A stretch of 64,000 nt of DNA from Okamejei kenojei. Its lineage: Eukaryota. Position numbers and translations under genes: made by a program. Positions within the stretch are counted from its first letter, which is position 1. The number at the start of each line of letters is the position of its first letter. The notes under the pieces were generated by a model that searched no databases, had not been told where the DNA came from, and saw only the letters and a list, made by a program, of their open reading frames with translations. This document shows positions 22,312 to 58,161 of the stretch, one piece after another. The stretch covers positions 26,350,001-26,414,000 of the forward strand of contig CM069165.1 in the NCBI GenBank assembly GCA_035221665.1. The letters run 5' to 3'.

Positions 22312-22454
22312 CTGAAAAATAAAATCCAAGCAGTAATTATTTAACTGGTTTCATTTGAAGAATACACTCACTACTTGGAGAGTTCGGTGCCAAACATCCT
22401 AAGAAAAGTATTAAGGACAGGAAGTTACTTAAATTCCGTAATGTCAGAAAGGAC

Positions 22455-23850
22455 TTGAGTGACTCCTCCCATTTCCTCCAAATCCAAGGCATAGCTATGG
22501 GCACGCTCATGGGCCCCAGCTATGCCTGCCTCTTTGTAGGGTACGTCGAACAATCCTTGTTCGAGGCGTACCGTGGCACTGTCTCCGAACTCTACCTCCG
22601 CTACATCGACGACTGCATTGGTGTTATCCCCTGCACCCATGCAGAACTCACTGACTTCATCAATTTCACCACAAACTTCCATCCGGCACTCAAATTCACC
22701 TGGACGATTTCCGACATCTCCCTACCATTTCTAGACCTCACTATCTCCATCGCAGGCAACAGACTTCTGACTGACATCCACTATAAACCCACTGACTCCC
22801 ATGGTTATCTGGGTTATACTTCTTCCCACCCTGCCTTATGTAAGAAATCTATTCCCTACTCCCAATTTCTACGTCTATGCCGGATCTGCACCCAGGATCA
22901 GGTGTTCCAAACCAGGGCATCGGAGATGTCCTCATTCTTCAGGAAACAGGGGTTCCCCTCTTCGACTATAGATGAGGCTCTCACCAGGGTCTCTTCTATA
23001 CCCCGTAACTTTGCTCTCACTCCCCATCCCCCCCACTCATAACAAGGGCAGAGTCCTCCTTGTCCTCACCTTCCACCCTACTAGCTGTCACATAAAAGTG
23101 ATAATCCTCCGACATTTTCACCACCTCCAACGGGATCCCACCACTGACCACATCTTCCCATCTCCTCCCCTTTCGGCTTTACGCAGAGACCGCTCCCTCC
23201 GTAACTCCCTGGTCAATTCTTCCCTTCCCACCCAAACCACCCCCTCCCCTGGTACTTTCCCTTGCAACCGCAGGAAATGCTACACTTATCGGTTTACCTC
23301 GCCCCTTGTCTCCATCCAAGGACCTAAGCAGTCTTTCCAGGTGCGGCAGAGGTTCACGTGCACCTCCCCCAACCTCATCTATTGCATCTGCTGCTCTAGG
23401 TGTCAGCTGTTCTATATCGGTGAGACCAAGCATAGGTTTGGCGATCGCTTCGCCCAACACCTCCGCTCAGTTCGCAATAACCAACCTGATCTCCCGATGG
23501 CTCAGCACTTCAACCCCTCCCATTCCGAATCCAATCTTTCTGTCCTGTGCCTCCTCTATGGCCAGAGTGAGTCACACCGTAAATTGGCAGAGCAGCACCT
23601 CATATTTCGCTTGGGTAGTTTAATTGACCTCCAATTTCAGGTAGTCCTTGCTCTCTCCCTCTTTCCCCTCCCCTTCCCAGCTCTCCCACAGCCCACTGTC
23701 TCCGCCTCTTCCTTTCTTCTGCCCGCCCCCCCCCCCCCCACCATCCCCTCATCAGTCTGAGGAATGGTCTGGTCCCGAAACATCACCCATTCCTTCGCTC
23801 CATTGATGCTGCCTCACCCGCTGAGTTTCTCCAGCATTTCTGTCTACCCA
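22455..23850 (+). mobile_element. 5'-truncated Penelope-like element: RT C-terminal half, GIY-YIG endonuclease and pseudo-LTR tail
   Basis: GIAMGTLMGPSYA and YLRYIDD RT motifs; NLIYCICCSRCQLFYIGET..GDRFAQH GIY-YIG motif; one frameshift near 23030. Confidence 0.95.
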
Positions 23851-26278: not shown

Positions 26279-26556
26279 AGGGCCTGTCCCACTTACCCGA
26301 TTTTATCGACGACTTGCCGGCACCCGTCATCGTCGCAGCAGGTTCGCGAAAATGTTCAAAATGTTGAAAATCCAAAAAGGCTTGACTCTTTGGGCGACTA
26401 CTCACCACCAAACAGGCGTTACCCCGGTGAGTAGTCGCCCAAAGAGTCATGCCTTTTTCTGGTCGCTGTTGGATTTTCAACATTTTGAAGATTTTCGTCG
26501 ACCTGCTGCGACTGTGACGGGCAAGTCGCCGAAATAAAATCAGCGGGACAGGCCCT
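26279..26556. mobile_element. PIF/Harbinger-type fold-back MITE
   Basis: Termini AGGGCCTGTCCC...GGGACAGGCCCT, flanks TAA and TAG; the whole element is an imperfect inverted repeat. Confidence 0.85.
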
Positions 26557-27508
26557 TAGATATGTGAAGAGAAAGAGGTTAGTTAAAACAAATGTAGGTC
26601 CCTTGCAGTCAGAAACAGGTGAGTTGATCATGGGGAACAAGGATATGGCGGACCAATTGAATAACTACTTTGGTTCCGTCTTCACTAAGGAAGACATAAA
26701 TAATCTGCCTGAAATAGCAGGGGACTGTGGGTCAAAGGAGGAATTGAGTGAAATCCAGGTCAGTCGGGAAGTGGTGTTGGGTAAATTGAATAGATTAAAG
26801 GCCGATAAATCCCCAGGGCCAGATAGGCTGCATCCCAGAGTGCTTAAGGAAGTAGCTCAGGAAATAGTGGATGCATTAGTGATAATCTTTCAAAACTCTT
26901 TAGATTCTGGAGTAGTTCCTGAGGATTGGCGGGTAGCAAATGTAACCCCTCTTTTTAAGAAGGGAGGGAGAGAGAAAACGGGGAATTACAGACCAGTTAG
27001 TCTAACATCGGTAGTGGGGAAACTGCTAGAGTCAGTTATTAAAGATGGGATAGCAGCACATTTGGAAAGTGGTGAAATCATTGGACAAAGTCAGCATGGA
27101 TTTACAAAAGGTAAATCATGTCTGACGAATCTTGTGGAATTTTTCGAGGATGTAACTAGTAGCGTGGATAAGGGAGAACCAGTGGATGTGGTATATCTGG
27201 ACTTCCAGAAGGCTTTCGACAAGGTCCCACATAAGAGATTAGTATACAAACTTAAAGCATACGGTATTAGGGGTTTCAGTATTGATGTGGATAGAGAACT
27301 GGCTGGCAAACAGGAAGCAAAGAGTAGGAGTAAACGGGTCCTTTTCACAATGGCAGGCAGTAACTAGTGGGGTACCGCAGGGCTCAGTGCTGGGACCCCA
27401 GCTATTTACAATATATATTAATGATCTGGATGAGGGAATTGAAGGCAATATCTCCAAGTTTGCGGATGACACTAAGCTGGGGGGCAGTGTTTCTATGTTT
27501 CTATGTTT
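26557..27508 (+). mobile_element. Young CR1/HER1 LINE RT fragment
   Basis: [60 protein letters not shown]; one frameshift near 27270; ends in (ttctatgt)2. Confidence 0.97.
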
Positions 27509-33285: not shown

Positions 33286-33660
33286 CTCAGGATGACCATG
33301 GGGTGAATATTACAGTTTAGACACCTTTTGTTTCACTCGTAACTATTTTGCGATCTTACAAATTTAAAAGCAAATTAGCTTTATTTCAGTAATATCTTTT
33401 TTTTTTAAGACATTGAATGTAGATAGACACAAAAAAAACTGTTCAGCGGGTCAGGCAGCTTCTCTGGAAAAAAGAAATAGGCGATGTTTTGGATCGAGTC
33501 CCTTCCTCAATGTGTACACAATGTGAAGAATGTTATCTGCACAACAATTCCCATATTCAGTTACACAACTCCATGTGGAGTTCCTGTGTAGCCCCGCACT
33601 GATACTCTCTCTTTACATTTGAATTACTGTAACAAAGAAAAATTGAAAAACAAACATTAC

Positions 33661-34707
33661 CTCTTGTCATTTATCCTATGTGGCTTCCTGACCAGGTACT
33701 CAAAATGATCGGTGATTTTGTTCGCAACCTTTGCAGTGCCTTTCCAACTTCCAAGCTGTGAAGGGGAACTTGTCGAAGGATACGTTTTTTGCTCTGACTT
33801 TACTGATCCATCCTTTAAACCACGGAATGTTTTCTGTTTTGCCTTTGGGAAGGAATCCTCACATTGACATTGCACATCCTTGTCCACCTCCATCATATCT
33901 TCATCGTTTTTATTATCAGAGTATGGATTAACACAATAAGACCTGTGGCACGGAGAAGCGTCCTCAAAACCTTCTGAAACTTTGGCTGTAAAACATGCAG
34001 GTTCAGTGTCTGATTCGTGAGGGCTATTATCAGCAAAGTCAAAGTGCACGGGAAAGATGGACTTGGTCTCTTTCTTAGCAGTGAGCCAATCTCCTGAATT
34101 TTCCTTCCCATGGTCTTGTTTTTCACCTCCACTTGTGCCAGGGGTACACTGTTCACACCCAGAATCAGAGAGCGGACTTTCAGGAACAACATAAATCTCA
34201 TCCTGTGAATCTTCATTAGAGTTCATGGTCTCAAGTTCTCTCAAGTGATGCTCCTCTTGGTTTTTTTCATCAGCCGGAGTGACAACAGTGTTCCTTGAGC
34301 CTTTTGAATCAGGAGGCTTTACCACCCATTCCTCAAGTGTGTTGCATTTCTTTTTATCTGGAATAATGTTCTTAGCTTTGTCTTTAGAACCAGAGGTTTC
34401 TAAAGTGGGGTTTGGTGCTATTTGGTTACCTCTATCATTTTCAGAGGCGTACCCGTCTACACTTTTAACTAAACAGACAGAGGACTGTTCAAACCTCTGA
34501 GTCTCCACGGCAAAGGAATATTTCCACTTTTGTTTCTGAACCTTCTCATCAAACTCACAGCACTCTGTTGATTTGCTACTCTTAGACTCGGTGCCTGAAG
34601 AATTAACCATCCTGTCCTGTTGCATGAACTGAACTGTCCACGTATCCTTGCATCCTCTCTCAGTGTCTTCTAATCCTCCGTCTTTGCCTTGTAGTTTTTT
34701 CTCAGTG
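33661..34707 (-). CDS. PARG: PARG large N-terminal regulatory exon, equivalent to human exon 3
   Basis: 1047-bp open frame, atgcag acceptor and gtaatg donor, phase 2/2; contains VVPESPLSD and the non-canonical PIP box KITDHF, as in human PARG. Confidence 0.93.
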
Positions 34708-35577
34708 CTGCATGATACAATGTAGAGAAGAATGAGAAAATACTTGAAAACAAATTACAATTTTAAATTGAACCACATTTAAAAAATATTTTTTGTCTTT
34801 AGCCATTCAACCAATCTCTTAGAGGCTTGAAAAATTAACTAGGTTACAATGCTTTATTCAATCATCGACTTATTTTCATCCTGACTAAATTGCACATGTT
34901 AAATCAATTGCAGCGGGATTTTTGAGAGTTAACTACAGGTGGCATGGCATAGGGTTGATATCATGAGTGATTTTGTTAAGGTTTATGATAAATCCTAGGA
35001 CCATTAAAAATGTACGCTGCAGCCCACTCAGCCCTTTGAGCCAATTCCTTCATTAAACATGATCTTTTAACTAAACCCCAAATTCTTGTTCTACCACATC
35101 AGTTGCTTGCTTTAACTTCTATAAATCCATGTCTATTCTGAAAATAACCACCGATTACTAATCCACTAGCACCCGAGGCATTGTACCCATGGCTCAGTTG
35201 GAAATAAAACTTTAACCTGGTTCAGTTCTTTTCACTAATTGTCTCTCTTACTGTCTTGTGTTAATATTTTTTCATTTTCTGAAAACAGCATGCTATCAGG
35301 ACCATGTTATCATTGGGAAGGGAAGCAACGGATTTTCTGCTGTTATGCTCTCTGTGGTTTCTGTTGAACAGGCTTATGCCTGGTCAATACTTGGGCGGGA
35401 GGCCACCAGGTTCGGTGGTAGTTGTTGCCTGAGAAAACACAATCCAAATCAGCAGACAACATTCATATTGAAAAAGGTTTTGTGGTCCTACGGCTAAAAA
35501 TAAAATGACTAGGTCAGAGAATCAAACATTATGGCTAGATTGTGAATCTTTAAACAGGATATGCTAGCTAGATTATA

Positions 35578-54335: not shown

Positions 54336-56379
54336 AAGATAACAATAATTCTGTCTCTGCAAAATCCTCCAGATCCACTTGAATGATAAGTGAACCACCA
54401 CTCTCAGGCCAACATTCCCAGCAATGAATATAGACACAAAAAGCTGGTCAGATAGGGAGAAAAGGAATAATGTTCCCGTGACACTTAATTCGGCTCTGCT
54501 GGGCAGGGCACATTGTTTACGTGTCTGACACCACAGTCCAAAACATATTGCCTTTGTTGTGGGAAGAGGCTATCAGGAAAGTGTTCAAGGAAGCACTTTA
54601 AGCCTCCTGGGATTAATGTAACATGCGCACTGAGTACTGGGAATGCTTGTACCATGATCACTCGATGTGGACAAGGAGTGCACAATCTCACAAGCTACTC
54701 ACTCACCCACCCAACCTATCACGAACCTTCTTCCTCATCTGTGAAAGGCTCTCCATTGCCACATTGGGCTCTGCAGTCACTTCAGGAGGACCCGGTGTGG
54801 GGGCCGCTGAGAGGGGGGGTGAGAACAACGGAGACCCGGCCTGGGGTACTTGGTAACTTTGTTGGTGCCCTTTGTGTGGTGACTATTTGCATACCTTGGA
54901 TACCTTGCAAAACAAAGGATATCACATAGGATGCATGTGACAAAATTCATCCATTCAGAACCCATAAGACTGGAGTGAAAGCACATCATCCTCGATCACA
55001 CGGGAATGTCGAAGCAGAAGAAGATTTTCATTATTTTCTGTCGAAAATTGTTCTATTACCAGCTTTAAGGTATTCATTGTGATTTCCCATGTAAAAGAGG
55101 GGTCCACAAAATGTTTTAATCTTCTTAATTGAAGAACACACATAGTGTCTTCTCTGGAGCGTCAGAGGTTGAGGCGAGACCTGATAGAAGTATATCAAAT
55201 TGTGAGAGGCATAGATAGAGTAGACATTCAGAACTTTGTATCCAGGCGGAAATGTTAAAAACCAGGGAGTGTTGCATTGATGTCAGAGGGGGAGCATTTT
55301 TTACACAGAGGTTGGTGGGTGCCTGGAACCAAAGATACTAGGGGAGCGCTCCGCTAGTATCTTTGCCTGGAACATTCTGCCTGGGGTAATTGTGCAACAG
55401 ATAAGATAATGACATTTTAAAGGCCTGTAGATAGGCCCATGGATATGTGTAAAATGGAGGGATATGGATTGCATGCAGGCAGAGTGGATTGACTTGGCAT
55501 CATGCTCAGCGCATGCATTGTGGGTAAAGGGCATGCTCATGTGCTGCACTGTGTGCGTTCAACTTTTACTTGGTTTCAACTTGTACACAAGGTTGCGGTT
55601 TGTGCGTATTTGAGCTTGAGCCACCTATCCAGCGGCAATCTGAATGGAAAATGAGAGACAAGTCCTACCGTAAATGCATTATGCATTTTAGCCATTGCAT
55701 CACTGACGAATGCCCATCGTATGTTTACAGGGGACCGACAGACATTATATAACAAGTAACTTTAATGTCCTTAGCTGATTGAATTGTTAGATTGCATTGG
55801 TGGACATTACTAATGGCATTGCTTCTACTCAATGGCATTGAGTATTAATATCCTCCAAACATTACATTACATTTCTCTCAGATGTATGAACAAAATGATC
55901 AATATTAATATTTAATAGCAGTTAATATCTTTTAACTGATGTAAATAATTATAATGTCATTAATATAATATATTGGATCCATATATACCCATTACTGCTT
56001 GAATTTAATAAAAATAATATATCACAGATTTGCTCATCTGTTTGTCATCAATTAGACTTTAACTAATCATTTTCTTAGGATAATTAAACATTTCAGTCCA
56101 TAAATGTTGATTATCCAATACGTGCCTAAATATTTTTAAAGCAACTTAATTATCTGACTGCAATATTAACTGAAGACACAAGGAATGAGGCAAAATACTA
56201 AACATTTACGGTAAACACATTTTTAATATGTTTTATGTAAAATGGTGGATGTGGTCAGCAGGATGGGTCACACCCATAGACTTAATGTTTCTGGTCAGCA
56301 GAACTGAAGAATTTACTGTTCTGGACTCTATATTCTTAAAAGGACACCAAGATAGTGAGACAGACACTAATGCTGTAGT

Positions 56380-56837
56380 CTTCTACTTATTCTTCTTCTT
56401 GCGCATGGCATGCACAGCCTAAAGTTGTGGTACAACTTGTTCTACTTGACCTTATTTGATCGTGCATACAAGGTTGATTTGCATTCGTTAAAACGGGGCG
56501 GACCACGTGAAGGTTATGGCCCTGTCCCACGGTACGAGTTCATTCCAAGCGCTCTCCCGAGTTTAAAAAAAAAAATCAAACTCGTGGTAAGCACGGAAAA
56601 TGAACATAGCGGGTACGTCGGAGCTCGGGGACGTCTCTTAGCAGCTCGTAACGCTAACGGCAGGTACTCGGGAAGACTCGTGAAGATTTTTCAACATGTT
56701 GAAAAATGTCCACGAGAGCCCCGAGTACCGACGGCCGGCCATTACCGTAAATCTCTGAGTTCGAATCAGGGCACATTCGGGAGAGCTCTTGGAATGAACT
56801 CATGTCGTGGGGCAGGGACATTACAATCTCCCACCCC
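56380..56837 (-). mobile_element. ~151-nt retroposon with 5' HDV-like ribozyme fold and (AAG)n tail, split by a MITE
   Basis: 11-bp TSD aatgctgtagt at 56369-56379 and 56838-56848; reconstructed 5' end GGGGTGG-GAGA-TTGTA-ACC-TTCACGT-GGT-CCGCCCC-G-TTTTAA-CGAA-TGCAA. Confidence 0.82.
56517..56820. mobile_element. PIF/Harbinger-type MITE
   Basis: TTA TSD on both sides; ~45-bp imperfect TIRs TGGCCCTGTCCCACG..GAGTTCATTCCAAG and CTTGGAATGAACTC..CGTGGGGCAGGGACA. Confidence 0.9.
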
Positions 56838-57922
56838 AATGCTGTAGTAACTCAGTGGGACAGGCAGCATCTCTGGAGAGAAGGAATGGGTGAAGTTTCG
56901 GGTCGAGACCCTTCTTCAGTTTGAAGATGGGTCTCGACCCAGAAACGCACCCATTCCTTCATCCTCAGATGCTGCTTGTCCCCCTGAGTAACTCCAGCAT
57001 TTTGAGCCTATCTTCGGTGTAAACCAGCATTCTGCAGTTCCTATCTTCAGGAAAATGCAGATATTGGAATTGTGTGCAAAATACAAAGTGCTGGAGGGTC
57101 AGGCAGCATCTGTGGAGGGAATGGACATTTCAGGACAGGATCCTTCAGTAGACTAAAAAATTAATCAGCATTAATGTGCTGCCTGACCTGAGTAGTTCTG
57201 GCATTTTGCCTCAAAATTCCAGCAGATGTGGAGTTTTGCTTCAGTCTGCATGAAGGCTTGGGTAATGGTTTTGGTTTGTGAGTCTCTGCACTGCCTAGCA
57301 AGTAGCGACACATTCCTCAGATCTCATCTCAATTTCTCTTCTGCCAATTTGTCCAAGTTTGGAACCATCTCCTTTTGAAGCAGTCCTCCACAATTTTGAT
57401 CCTGGTTTGTGGGTTCAGACTTAGGGGAGTGATGGTATTGTCTGTCTTATGTTCTGGTCCTGAATACAATTACCCACACTTTTCCCCAACATTCCTCCCT
57501 TGATAGTGCAAAATTCAACCCTTGACAATTGCAGTGATTGCAGTGTCTCCATCCACTCTGTCCACTGAACCAGTCAATAAAGAAAAGCTTGATGTTTGAC
57601 ATTAGTGCAACAAAAATGTTTGTTAATATAAACAATGGTTTATTTATTGTCACATGTACCTCGGTGAAATGAGGTTCTGTTTTTACATCAGCGAGATTAT
57701 TGGCATTCATAAGTAATCGATATGGTCAGTTTTACAGATTTTCAGTTGTGCGTATTTCTATTTTTAATTTTTTATTGTTGAAGGGATGCAACATTAGTGA
57801 CTCGTGATATTGGGCATTTACCCCAAAAGGATTGTATTGTGTGACCAGTGGCTCCATGTACATATTGCAAAAATGTTTAGTGAGAAGTTTCCAGAAAGGG
57901 TATCCCTCTGTTTGGGATCTCT

Positions 57923-58111
57923 TCTTGCGTTTGAGGCAGCAGAAGTCTGCAGCTATCTGGTTCGACATCGGTTGGTGCCCGCACTTGAAAAGGGCGCACG
58001 CTCCAGGTTGGTGCCATGCTGCGGTGCTGTTGCTGTCTCTGTTTGTTGTCGTTCGCCTGACTTGGGTCAGTTGACAGGGCTCACCACGGGGAGGTCAACA
58101 ACAGGAGCCCC
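57923..58111 (-). mobile_element. 189-nt retroposon headed by an HDV-like ribozyme
   Basis: 12-bp TSD tttgggatctct at 57911-57922 and 58112-58123; 3' end ..GCCTCAAACGCAAGA(AG); no tRNA A/B boxes. Confidence 0.88.
58044..58111 (-). ncRNA. HDV/CPEB3-like self-cleaving ribozyme fold (68 nt)
   Basis: P1 GGGGCUC/GAGCCCU with G1-U wobble; P2 UGUUGUUG/CGACAACA; P3 ACC/GGU; L3 UCCCCGU; single P1.1 C-G; P4 CUGAC-CCAA-GUCAG; J4/2 G-C-GAA with the catalytic-position C at 58055. Confidence 0.88.
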
Positions 58112-58161
58112 TTTGGGATCTCTGAGAAAGCACAGTAGATAAATGATACACATCACTGCGT

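Follow-up and report, generated by a model that had tools for sequence, protein, structure and literature searches.

The 64,000-nucleotide stretch of the Okamejei kenojei genome analysed here (GCA_035221665.1, contig CM069165.1, positions 26,350,001 to 26,414,000; hereafter the window, whose positions are used throughout) carries on its minus strand, at 56369-56848, a single copy of a ~140-bp retroposon that begins with a predicted hepatitis delta virus (HDV)-like ribozyme and is interrupted by a 304-bp miniature inverted-repeat transposable element (MITE). The copy is bounded by an identical pair of 11-bp target-site duplications (TSDs) at 56838-56848 and 56369-56379, the former adjoining the first base of the element, G1 (56837). 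Ribozyme positions 1-17 (56821-56837), whose register is the same in 59 other copies, comprise the 5' strand of P1 (56831-56837), J1/2 (56829-56830), the 5' strand of P2 (56822-56828) and the first base of P3 (56821). The MITE (56517-56820, unstranded) lies at the P2/P3 junction, and beyond it 56493-56513 supplies the rest of P3, L3 (56505-56511), the 3' strands of P3 (56502-56504) and P1 (56495-56501), G37 of P1.1 (56494) and U38 (56493). A 5-nt stub (56488-56492) replaces P4, and is likewise 5 nt long in all four heads of the parent long interspersed nuclear element (LINE) described below. It is followed by J4/2, which reads C-G-A-A (56484-56487) and places the catalytic-position C44 at 56487, and by the 3' strand of P2 (56476-56483), which includes a 1-nt insertion specific to this copy. 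The remainder consists of further 5' untranslated region (UTR) of the parent LINE (56453-56475, element positions ~55-77; positions 1-77 match the 5' end of parent copy L320 at 84%), a junction spacer that partly duplicates the end of the 5' part (56436-56452), the 3' end of the parent with its last codons, stop codon (56419-56421) and short 3' UTR (56401-56435; the ends of L320, L323 and L330 agree with it at 91-97%), and a degenerate (AAG)n tail (56380-56400).

When the MITE is excised by coordinates, the two halves of the head join into a 7-bp P1, a 3-bp P3, a 7-nt L3, G37, the 5-nt stub and the C at 56487. A preliminary description of the locus had placed an 11-bp TSD next to G1 and an (AAG)n tail at the 3' end, and both are found there. 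It had also proposed a ~50-nt, nearly P4-less head with helices of 7 bp (P1), 5 bp (P2) and 3 bp (P3). The head stands, with an exact fold length of 54 nt, as do P1, P3 and the position of the C, whereas the P2 value does not describe the family, which has 7 bp; the 5-bp P2 of the window copy results from the 1-nt insertion in its 3' strand. In addition, this copy pairs G1 with C, where the family has G1·U36. As the same description suggested, the window copy is probably inactive, because 304 bp separate its P2 from its P3; the shortened P2 and the G1-C pair are further departures.

The insert itself has 14-bp terminal inverted repeats (TIRs) that match at 12 of 14 positions and is flanked by a duplicated TTA (56514-56516 and 56821-56823). 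In the window and the fetched loci together, TAA or TTA precedes 23 of 26 such TIR ends. The combination of short TIRs with a 3-bp TAA/TTA duplication, which we take to be the rule of the PIF/Harbinger superfamily, is present here, and the insert is likely a PIF/Harbinger-type MITE, as had been proposed. Full-length relatives occur at loci L082 (85%) and L059 (81%), L082 being itself a copy of the same retroposon family. The TAA target used by the MITE arose from one base change in P2.

The retroposon belongs to a large family. A 28-nt word of its head has 5,906 exact occurrences in the genome, a lower bound on copy number, and the reversed control has none, so the fold in the window is not a chance arrangement. 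We compared two sets of copies: 29 uninterrupted copies fetched after a genome search with the 3' half of the element (1,979 candidates, 40 scored), and 30 copies chosen for an exact match at positions 14-41, which contain one duplicated locus (L051/L052). Copies are ~140 bp long and end in (AAG)n. TSDs of 8-16 bp are present in 23/29 and 23/30 copies, and in 18 and 17 of these 23, respectively, the TSD ends at offset 0 or +1 from G1. The 54-nt family head comprises a 7-bp P1 that includes G1·U36, a 2-nt J1/2, a 7-bp P2, a 3-bp P3, a 7-nt L3, a single P1.1 pair (C22-G37), U38, the 5-nt stub and C44-N-A-A. Uninterrupted copies had been expected to keep the pairing of P1, P2 and P3 and the C of J4/2, and they do: P2 pairs at 7/7 positions in 25/29 and 26/30 copies, the C44 that opens J4/2 is kept in 26/29 and 30/30 (in C-G-A-A or C-U-A-A), and the entire fold is intact in 16/29 and 25/30, the latter fraction being biased upward by the selection for exact positions 14-41. 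The family falls into two subfamilies, distinguished mainly by the unpaired positions 8, 42 and 45, to which differences in the body are linked. Near the family copy at L006 lies a second, more diverged one (1035-1156; 77%).

The element also occurs in sequencing-run contigs of at least five coded organisms. In contigs aligned from four of these (17,065, 15,159, 10,331 and 1,557), G1 is the most frequent 5' loose end (433, 481, 220 and 40 contigs), and head variants above 10% are confined to positions 32 (U·G to U-A), 42 (in the stub) and 45 (the second base of J4/2). Contigs of runs presumed to be RNA contain pieces of the element and of its parent; because the RNA nature of the runs is only a guess and the contigs come without ends, these pieces are no evidence for expression or cleavage.

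The way to the parent LINE led through the Vingi clade. The supplement of Kojima 2018 (PMC5786205) prints the 5' sequences of Repbase Vingi-2_Gav, Vingi-4_Crp and Vingi-1_BF together with positions 395-451 of Vingi-2_SPur, and these sequences read as HDV-like folds. A motif built from the printed heads matches 8 places in the genome (control, 3) and five metagenome contigs. In one of the latter, L221, a CPEB3-type head that matches the printed Vingi-1_BF (PMC5786205) stands directly ahead of an apurinic/apyrimidinic endonuclease (APE) frame. The APE protein of L221 has 140 matches in the genome, and of 80 regions fetched, three (L320, L330 and L323) contain the parent: in L320 the head of the family lies at 264 and its 3' end at ~3310, and L330 and L323 are built likewise. 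The parent is ~3.1 kb long; L330 and L323 are colinear from end to end with APE and reverse transcriptase (RT) proteins of 975-1012 amino acids, the RVT_1 match has an E-value of 9e-29, and no RNase H match was found in four pieces of the parent open reading frame (ORF). In 17 of 20 further copies the family 3' end follows immediately after the stop codon. Parent copies are mostly 5'-truncated; four of 24 retain the head, two of them inverted, and all four have the 5-nt stub and C-U-A-A. In L323, L336, L343 and L350 the 5' part is inverted, in the manner of twin priming. Searches from other starting points returned other elements: RVT_1 led to nothing but L1-type elements in the 30 loci examined, PF14529 to a single two-ORF family in 30 loci, which we take to be I/Nimb-like, DUF6451 to one RTE family only, and two exclusion patterns to nothing more than short copies that were damaged or truncated (4 and 17 matches). 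A LINE of this genome shares 95-96% identity with a protein labelled Amblyraja radiata.

By sequence comparison, the short element is an internal-deletion derivative of this parent: it joins LINE positions 1 to ~77, through a ~17-nt spacer, to the last ~45 nt, and intermediate joints between the two LINE ends are visible in contigs of other runs. Both ends thus come from one LINE and the copies have TSDs and a microsatellite tail, which is what defines a bipartite non-autonomous LINE. A SINE in the strict sense was considered and rejected, since neither the window nor L016 has an Rfam match to tRNA, 5S or 7SL RNA and the head comes from the 5' end of the LINE itself; what follows the ribozyme is likewise no ORF end, as it matches the 5' UTR of L320. 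Vingi elements are defined by a single ORF that encodes APE and lacks RNase H (PMC13708176), and the parent fits this compact architecture, the single ORF being judged by colinearity because the frames are broken. A quick RT tree of 27 rows, from which one RTE row was dropped for length and which holds no clade-labelled Vingi, Ingi or I protein, groups the parent with families B, D and E of this genome (support 99) inside a clade of L221 relatives (98 by the approximate likelihood ratio test SH-aLRT), and apart from L1 and RTE. We conclude that the parent likely belongs to the Vingi clade.

Several lines of evidence suggest that the head has a genuine HDV-like fold. It has the hallmark 7-bp P1 starting from G1·Y, the 3-bp P3 that closes a 7-nt L3 and the pseudoknotted P2. 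The published descriptor for such ribozymes adds a constrained L3, two P1.1 pairs and C-R-R-A in J4/2 (PMC6326823). Positions 1-38 align without gaps among the LINE heads of the clade in this genome. Over ten heads picked by hand, U20, C24, G25 and the C22-G37 pair are invariant and 97.3% of the P1, P3 and P1.1 cells are paired, against 44-54% in slid controls; these heads contain 25 double changes where shuffles give 9.1 +/- 2.1 (0 of 500 reach the observed value), a result that is not a probability, since the heads are related to one another and a fold-shaped pattern was used to choose some of them. Relative to the own-genome head L215, 10 of 17 helix pairs are changed on both sides and none is broken. 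The fixed register failed to resolve P2 in family C (2/7) and in L219. The P4 region measures 15-51 nt in the other heads and 5 nt in the window family, and neither the short element nor its parent has the canonical P4 helix. Its absence would place the head with the minimal rather than the canonical HDV-like form, and HDV-like ribozymes that lack P4 are active in vitro (PMC10879173). We therefore predict self-cleavage at G1.

A number of observations weigh against this interpretation. No Rfam match reaches gathering level anywhere in the window, and a family copy (L016) within a 351-nt stretch has no Rfam ribozyme match. The intact copy L055 scores 23 bits against RF00622 (E 1.7e-4), below the 35-bit cut-off. 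Pseudoknot-free folding recovers P1 with all or part of P3 at a stability no better than that of shuffled sequences (z -0.04 and 0.92), although such z-scores are uninformative for a double pseudoknot. Only a single P1.1 pair is present, and the C-U-A-A form lies outside the C-R-R-A descriptor (PMC6326823), yet the RF00094 HDV consensus prints C-U-A-A. To these points we add the selection behind the second copy set, the relatedness of the ten compared heads, the composition of the RT tree, and the broken ORF of every parent copy seen.

Taken together, we consider it highly probable that the window holds a MITE-interrupted, non-autonomous retroposon of ~140 bp in which the first ~77 and the last ~45 bases of a ~3.1-kb LINE, likely a Vingi element, are joined, and that its first 54 bases form a predicted P4-less HDV-like ribozyme, which would free the element at G1. 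The claim of the preliminary description that such a fold heads a vertebrate mobile family is thereby upheld, with at least 5,906 copies and a parent that bears the same head. HDV-like heads are reported to free the RNAs of R2 and L1Tc from co-transcripts (PMC6765202, PMC8256844), and we infer a similar route here. A copy would be transcribed within a host read-through RNA, and its head would fold co-transcriptionally, with C44 catalysing a cut just 5' of G1. A Vingi protein acting in trans could then bind the 3' end, nick a new site and prime at the (AAG)n tail, and reverse copying through to G1 would leave the 8-16-bp TSD. Every full-length copy would thus possess its own release signal and be short enough for complete copying, which would explain why the family reaches numbers far above those of its mostly 5'-truncated parent.

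The precise ends at G1 fit an internal promoter equally well. In this alternative the fold would be HDV-like with poor or no cleavage after the loss of P4, a promoter would set the 5' end, and the fold would serve as a shield against exonucleases or as a protein-binding site. In L1Tc the same 77 nt act as promoter and as ribozyme (PMC8256844), and the failure of the fold to exceed shuffles in stability also speaks for such an alternative. However, the catalytic-position C, G1·U and the U and G of L3 are retained both by the short element and by all four parent heads, the common variants sit at unpaired or pair-keeping positions, natural P4-less ribozymes do cleave (PMC10879173), and promoter and ribozyme roles are compatible. 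We regard the alternative as unlikely and retain the ribozyme as the preferred reading of the head.

The preliminary description had further noted that L3 followed by a single P1.1 pair is the arrangement of the mammalian CPEB3 ribozyme, and had connected this with a retroposon origin of CPEB3-type ribozymes. The arrangement is confirmed: positions 1-38 share the exact CPEB3 register and L3 is identical. The inference drawn from the identical L3 is not, as the family reaches only 23 bits against RF00622 and matches L215 at 27 of 47 core positions. Identity in L3 is weak evidence of kinship, because this loop is under functional constraint and differs between sister heads, in which the forms UUCACGU, UUCUCGU and UCCCCGU occur. 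That the CPEB3 ribozyme descends from the window family itself, a view to which the shared register, the identical L3 and the weak RF00622 match would lend themselves, seems to us very improbable: by eye, only 27 of 49 positions outside P4 match the elephant ribozyme, CPEB3 has a 7-bp P4, closer heads exist in L215 and Vingi-2_Gav, and within the clade the quick RT tree already places the parent apart from the relatives of L221.

It is these other Vingi heads that make the connection relevant. All seven own-genome heads submitted (L212 and L214-L219, mostly old and without a clear TSD) pass the RF00622 gathering score with 35.1-66.8 bits; an eighth pattern match, L213, was judged a chance match and left out of the submission. 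The five metagenome loci, which include two near-duplicate pairs, also pass. Aligned by eye, L215, whose head is followed by a decayed APE endonuclease frame, agrees with the Rfam CPEB3 consensus at 50 of 55 positions outside the distal part of P4, and the gharial Vingi-2_Gav agrees with the elephant CPEB3 ribozyme (PMC8233481 supplement) at 52 of 54 (38/40 at positions 2-41 and 14/14 at the end). The same 7-bp P4 stem is found in the alligator SINE2-1_AMi. On the strength of the seven sister heads and the Vingi-2_Gav match, the CPEB3 ribozyme is likely a domesticated Vingi head. The direction from element to gene is likely because lancelet and sea-urchin Vingi share the head and the CPEB3 locus is described as mammalian. 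We thus think it probable, if with less assurance than for the retroposon itself, that Vingi is a general carrier of HDV-like ribozymes in vertebrates, that the skate series runs from CPEB3-like heads with P4 to a 54-nt P4-less form at thousands of copies, and that the mammalian CPEB3 ribozyme is a domesticated Vingi 5' end.

The general link between HDV-like ribozymes and retrotransposons is already published (PMC5786205, PMC6765202, PMC8256844), and Kojima 2018 names six ribozyme-bearing clades, Vingi not among them (PMC5786205). A text search of PMC8233481 found neither 'transpos' nor 'origin'. We found no published statement of a Vingi origin for CPEB3 in a search that did not extend to Webb 2009, Ruminski 2011, Kojima 2011, Repbase entries, patents and bioRxiv supplements. 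Bipartite Vingi derivatives are already in print; what is added here is the parent LINE and the lead on the origin of CPEB3. Lancelet and sea-urchin ribozymes on retroelements are reportedly described by Webb 2009 and Ruminski 2011, where part of the Vingi/CPEB3 link may be found.

Several LINE families of the same clade in this genome each have their own HDV-like head and an (AAG)n end. The window holds a second ribozyme-headed element at 57911-58123 (minus strand), a ~200-bp copy of family B with a 12-bp TSD and a full P4; this family has 1,319 candidates in the genome, its head matches RF02682 (E 6.5e-5), and related ~3.2-kb LINEs with the same head occur at L277 and L317, with closer ones at L289, L304 and L311. 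L255-L266, L281-L286, L267, L269, L272, L276 and L324 represent five or more additional LINE families of Vingi type, which mostly have a head of their own, HDV-like or G-rich, and end in an (AAG)n tail. Family C has two G after P1 (a two-pair P1.1, as in HDV), family H combines the CPEB3 P2 sequence with a different core, and the head of family E does not parse as an HDV fold. Among the metagenome contigs, L220 and L222-L224 have CPEB3-like heads with no LINE frame after them, and in L220 and L224 the head lies upstream of a lectin-like frame (named by eye).

Decayed RTE 5' ends at L179, L182, L186 and L194 show the ribozyme-head spacing 7+9+3+7+3+7, with P1 fully inverted yet paired, a C at the start and neither P1.1 nor J4/2; such an end is possibly a dead or rearranged homologue. 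We give hardly any credence to a derivation of the short element from the RTE clade instead of Vingi. In its favour, a decayed RTE family of this genome likewise has an (AAG)n end and, at the same spacing, agrees in its 5' end with the head of the short element at 17 of 19 bases around P2-P3-L3, and RTE is known for bipartite derivatives and such ribozymes (PMC5786205). Against it, the 3' end of that RTE family is unrelated save for the tail, and the discovery of a true parent that carries both ends and groups away from RTE largely refutes the idea.

Elsewhere in the window we noted a nested palindromic repeat with 40- and 39-nt arms, common in fetched loci, in the flank of the insertion site (56838-57001), a Penelope-like fragment with a weak GIY-YIG match (22359-23760, plus strand; E 6e-4), an RT fragment (26489-27367, plus strand; RVT_1 E 3e-14) and a stop-free frame of 365 amino acids with no Pfam match, probably a large exon (33657-34754, minus strand).

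If our interpretation is correct, the family would be a vertebrate example of the natural P4-less HDV-like ribozyme, for which earlier reports come almost exclusively from gut phages, and thousands of copies could cut the host transcripts that cross them in sense. The Vingi clade, now in use for RNA-based gene writing, would join the LINEs with a 5' ribozyme. Moreover, the long-open origin of the CPEB3 ribozyme would become a specific and testable claim, namely a Vingi insertion in an early mammal.

Finally, the family can be set beside four known systems. Like the bipartite non-autonomous Vingi and Ingi LINEs, such as the Vingi-1_EE derivatives, RIME and NARTc (Kojima 2018, PMC5786205), it joins the 5' and 3' ends of a LINE by internal deletion, has no ORF and is flanked by TSDs; unlike them, its 5' part is nearly all ribozyme fold, and P4-less. 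With the minimal HDV-like ribozymes (drz-Mtgn, theta; PMC10879173) it shares the lack of P4 and the retention of P1, P1.1, P2, P3 and the J4/2 C. Nearly 99% of the minimal ribozymes are from Caudoviricetes phages, often beside tRNAs, and the eukaryotes screened for them were human, mouse and protists (PMC10879173), whereas the window family heads a vertebrate retrotransposon at thousands of copies. The mammalian CPEB3 ribozyme, whose sequences are printed in PMC8233481 (supplement) and PMC5984629 (methods), has in common with it the register of positions 1-38, L3, the single C-G P1.1 pair followed by U, G1·U and, in one subfamily, C-G-A-A. It differs in that the window family has no P4, departs at 10 of 17 helix pairs, scores 23 bits where the cut-off is 35, and is multicopy and mobile where CPEB3 is a single intronic locus. 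The fourth system is L1TcRz/Pr77 of L1Tc and NARTc (PMC6765202, PMC8256844), a 77-nt ribozyme of the Ingi clade in a protist host: in both systems a randomly inserting APE-type LINE and its short derivative start with an HDV-like fold, and in both, release from co-transcripts is the proposed role.

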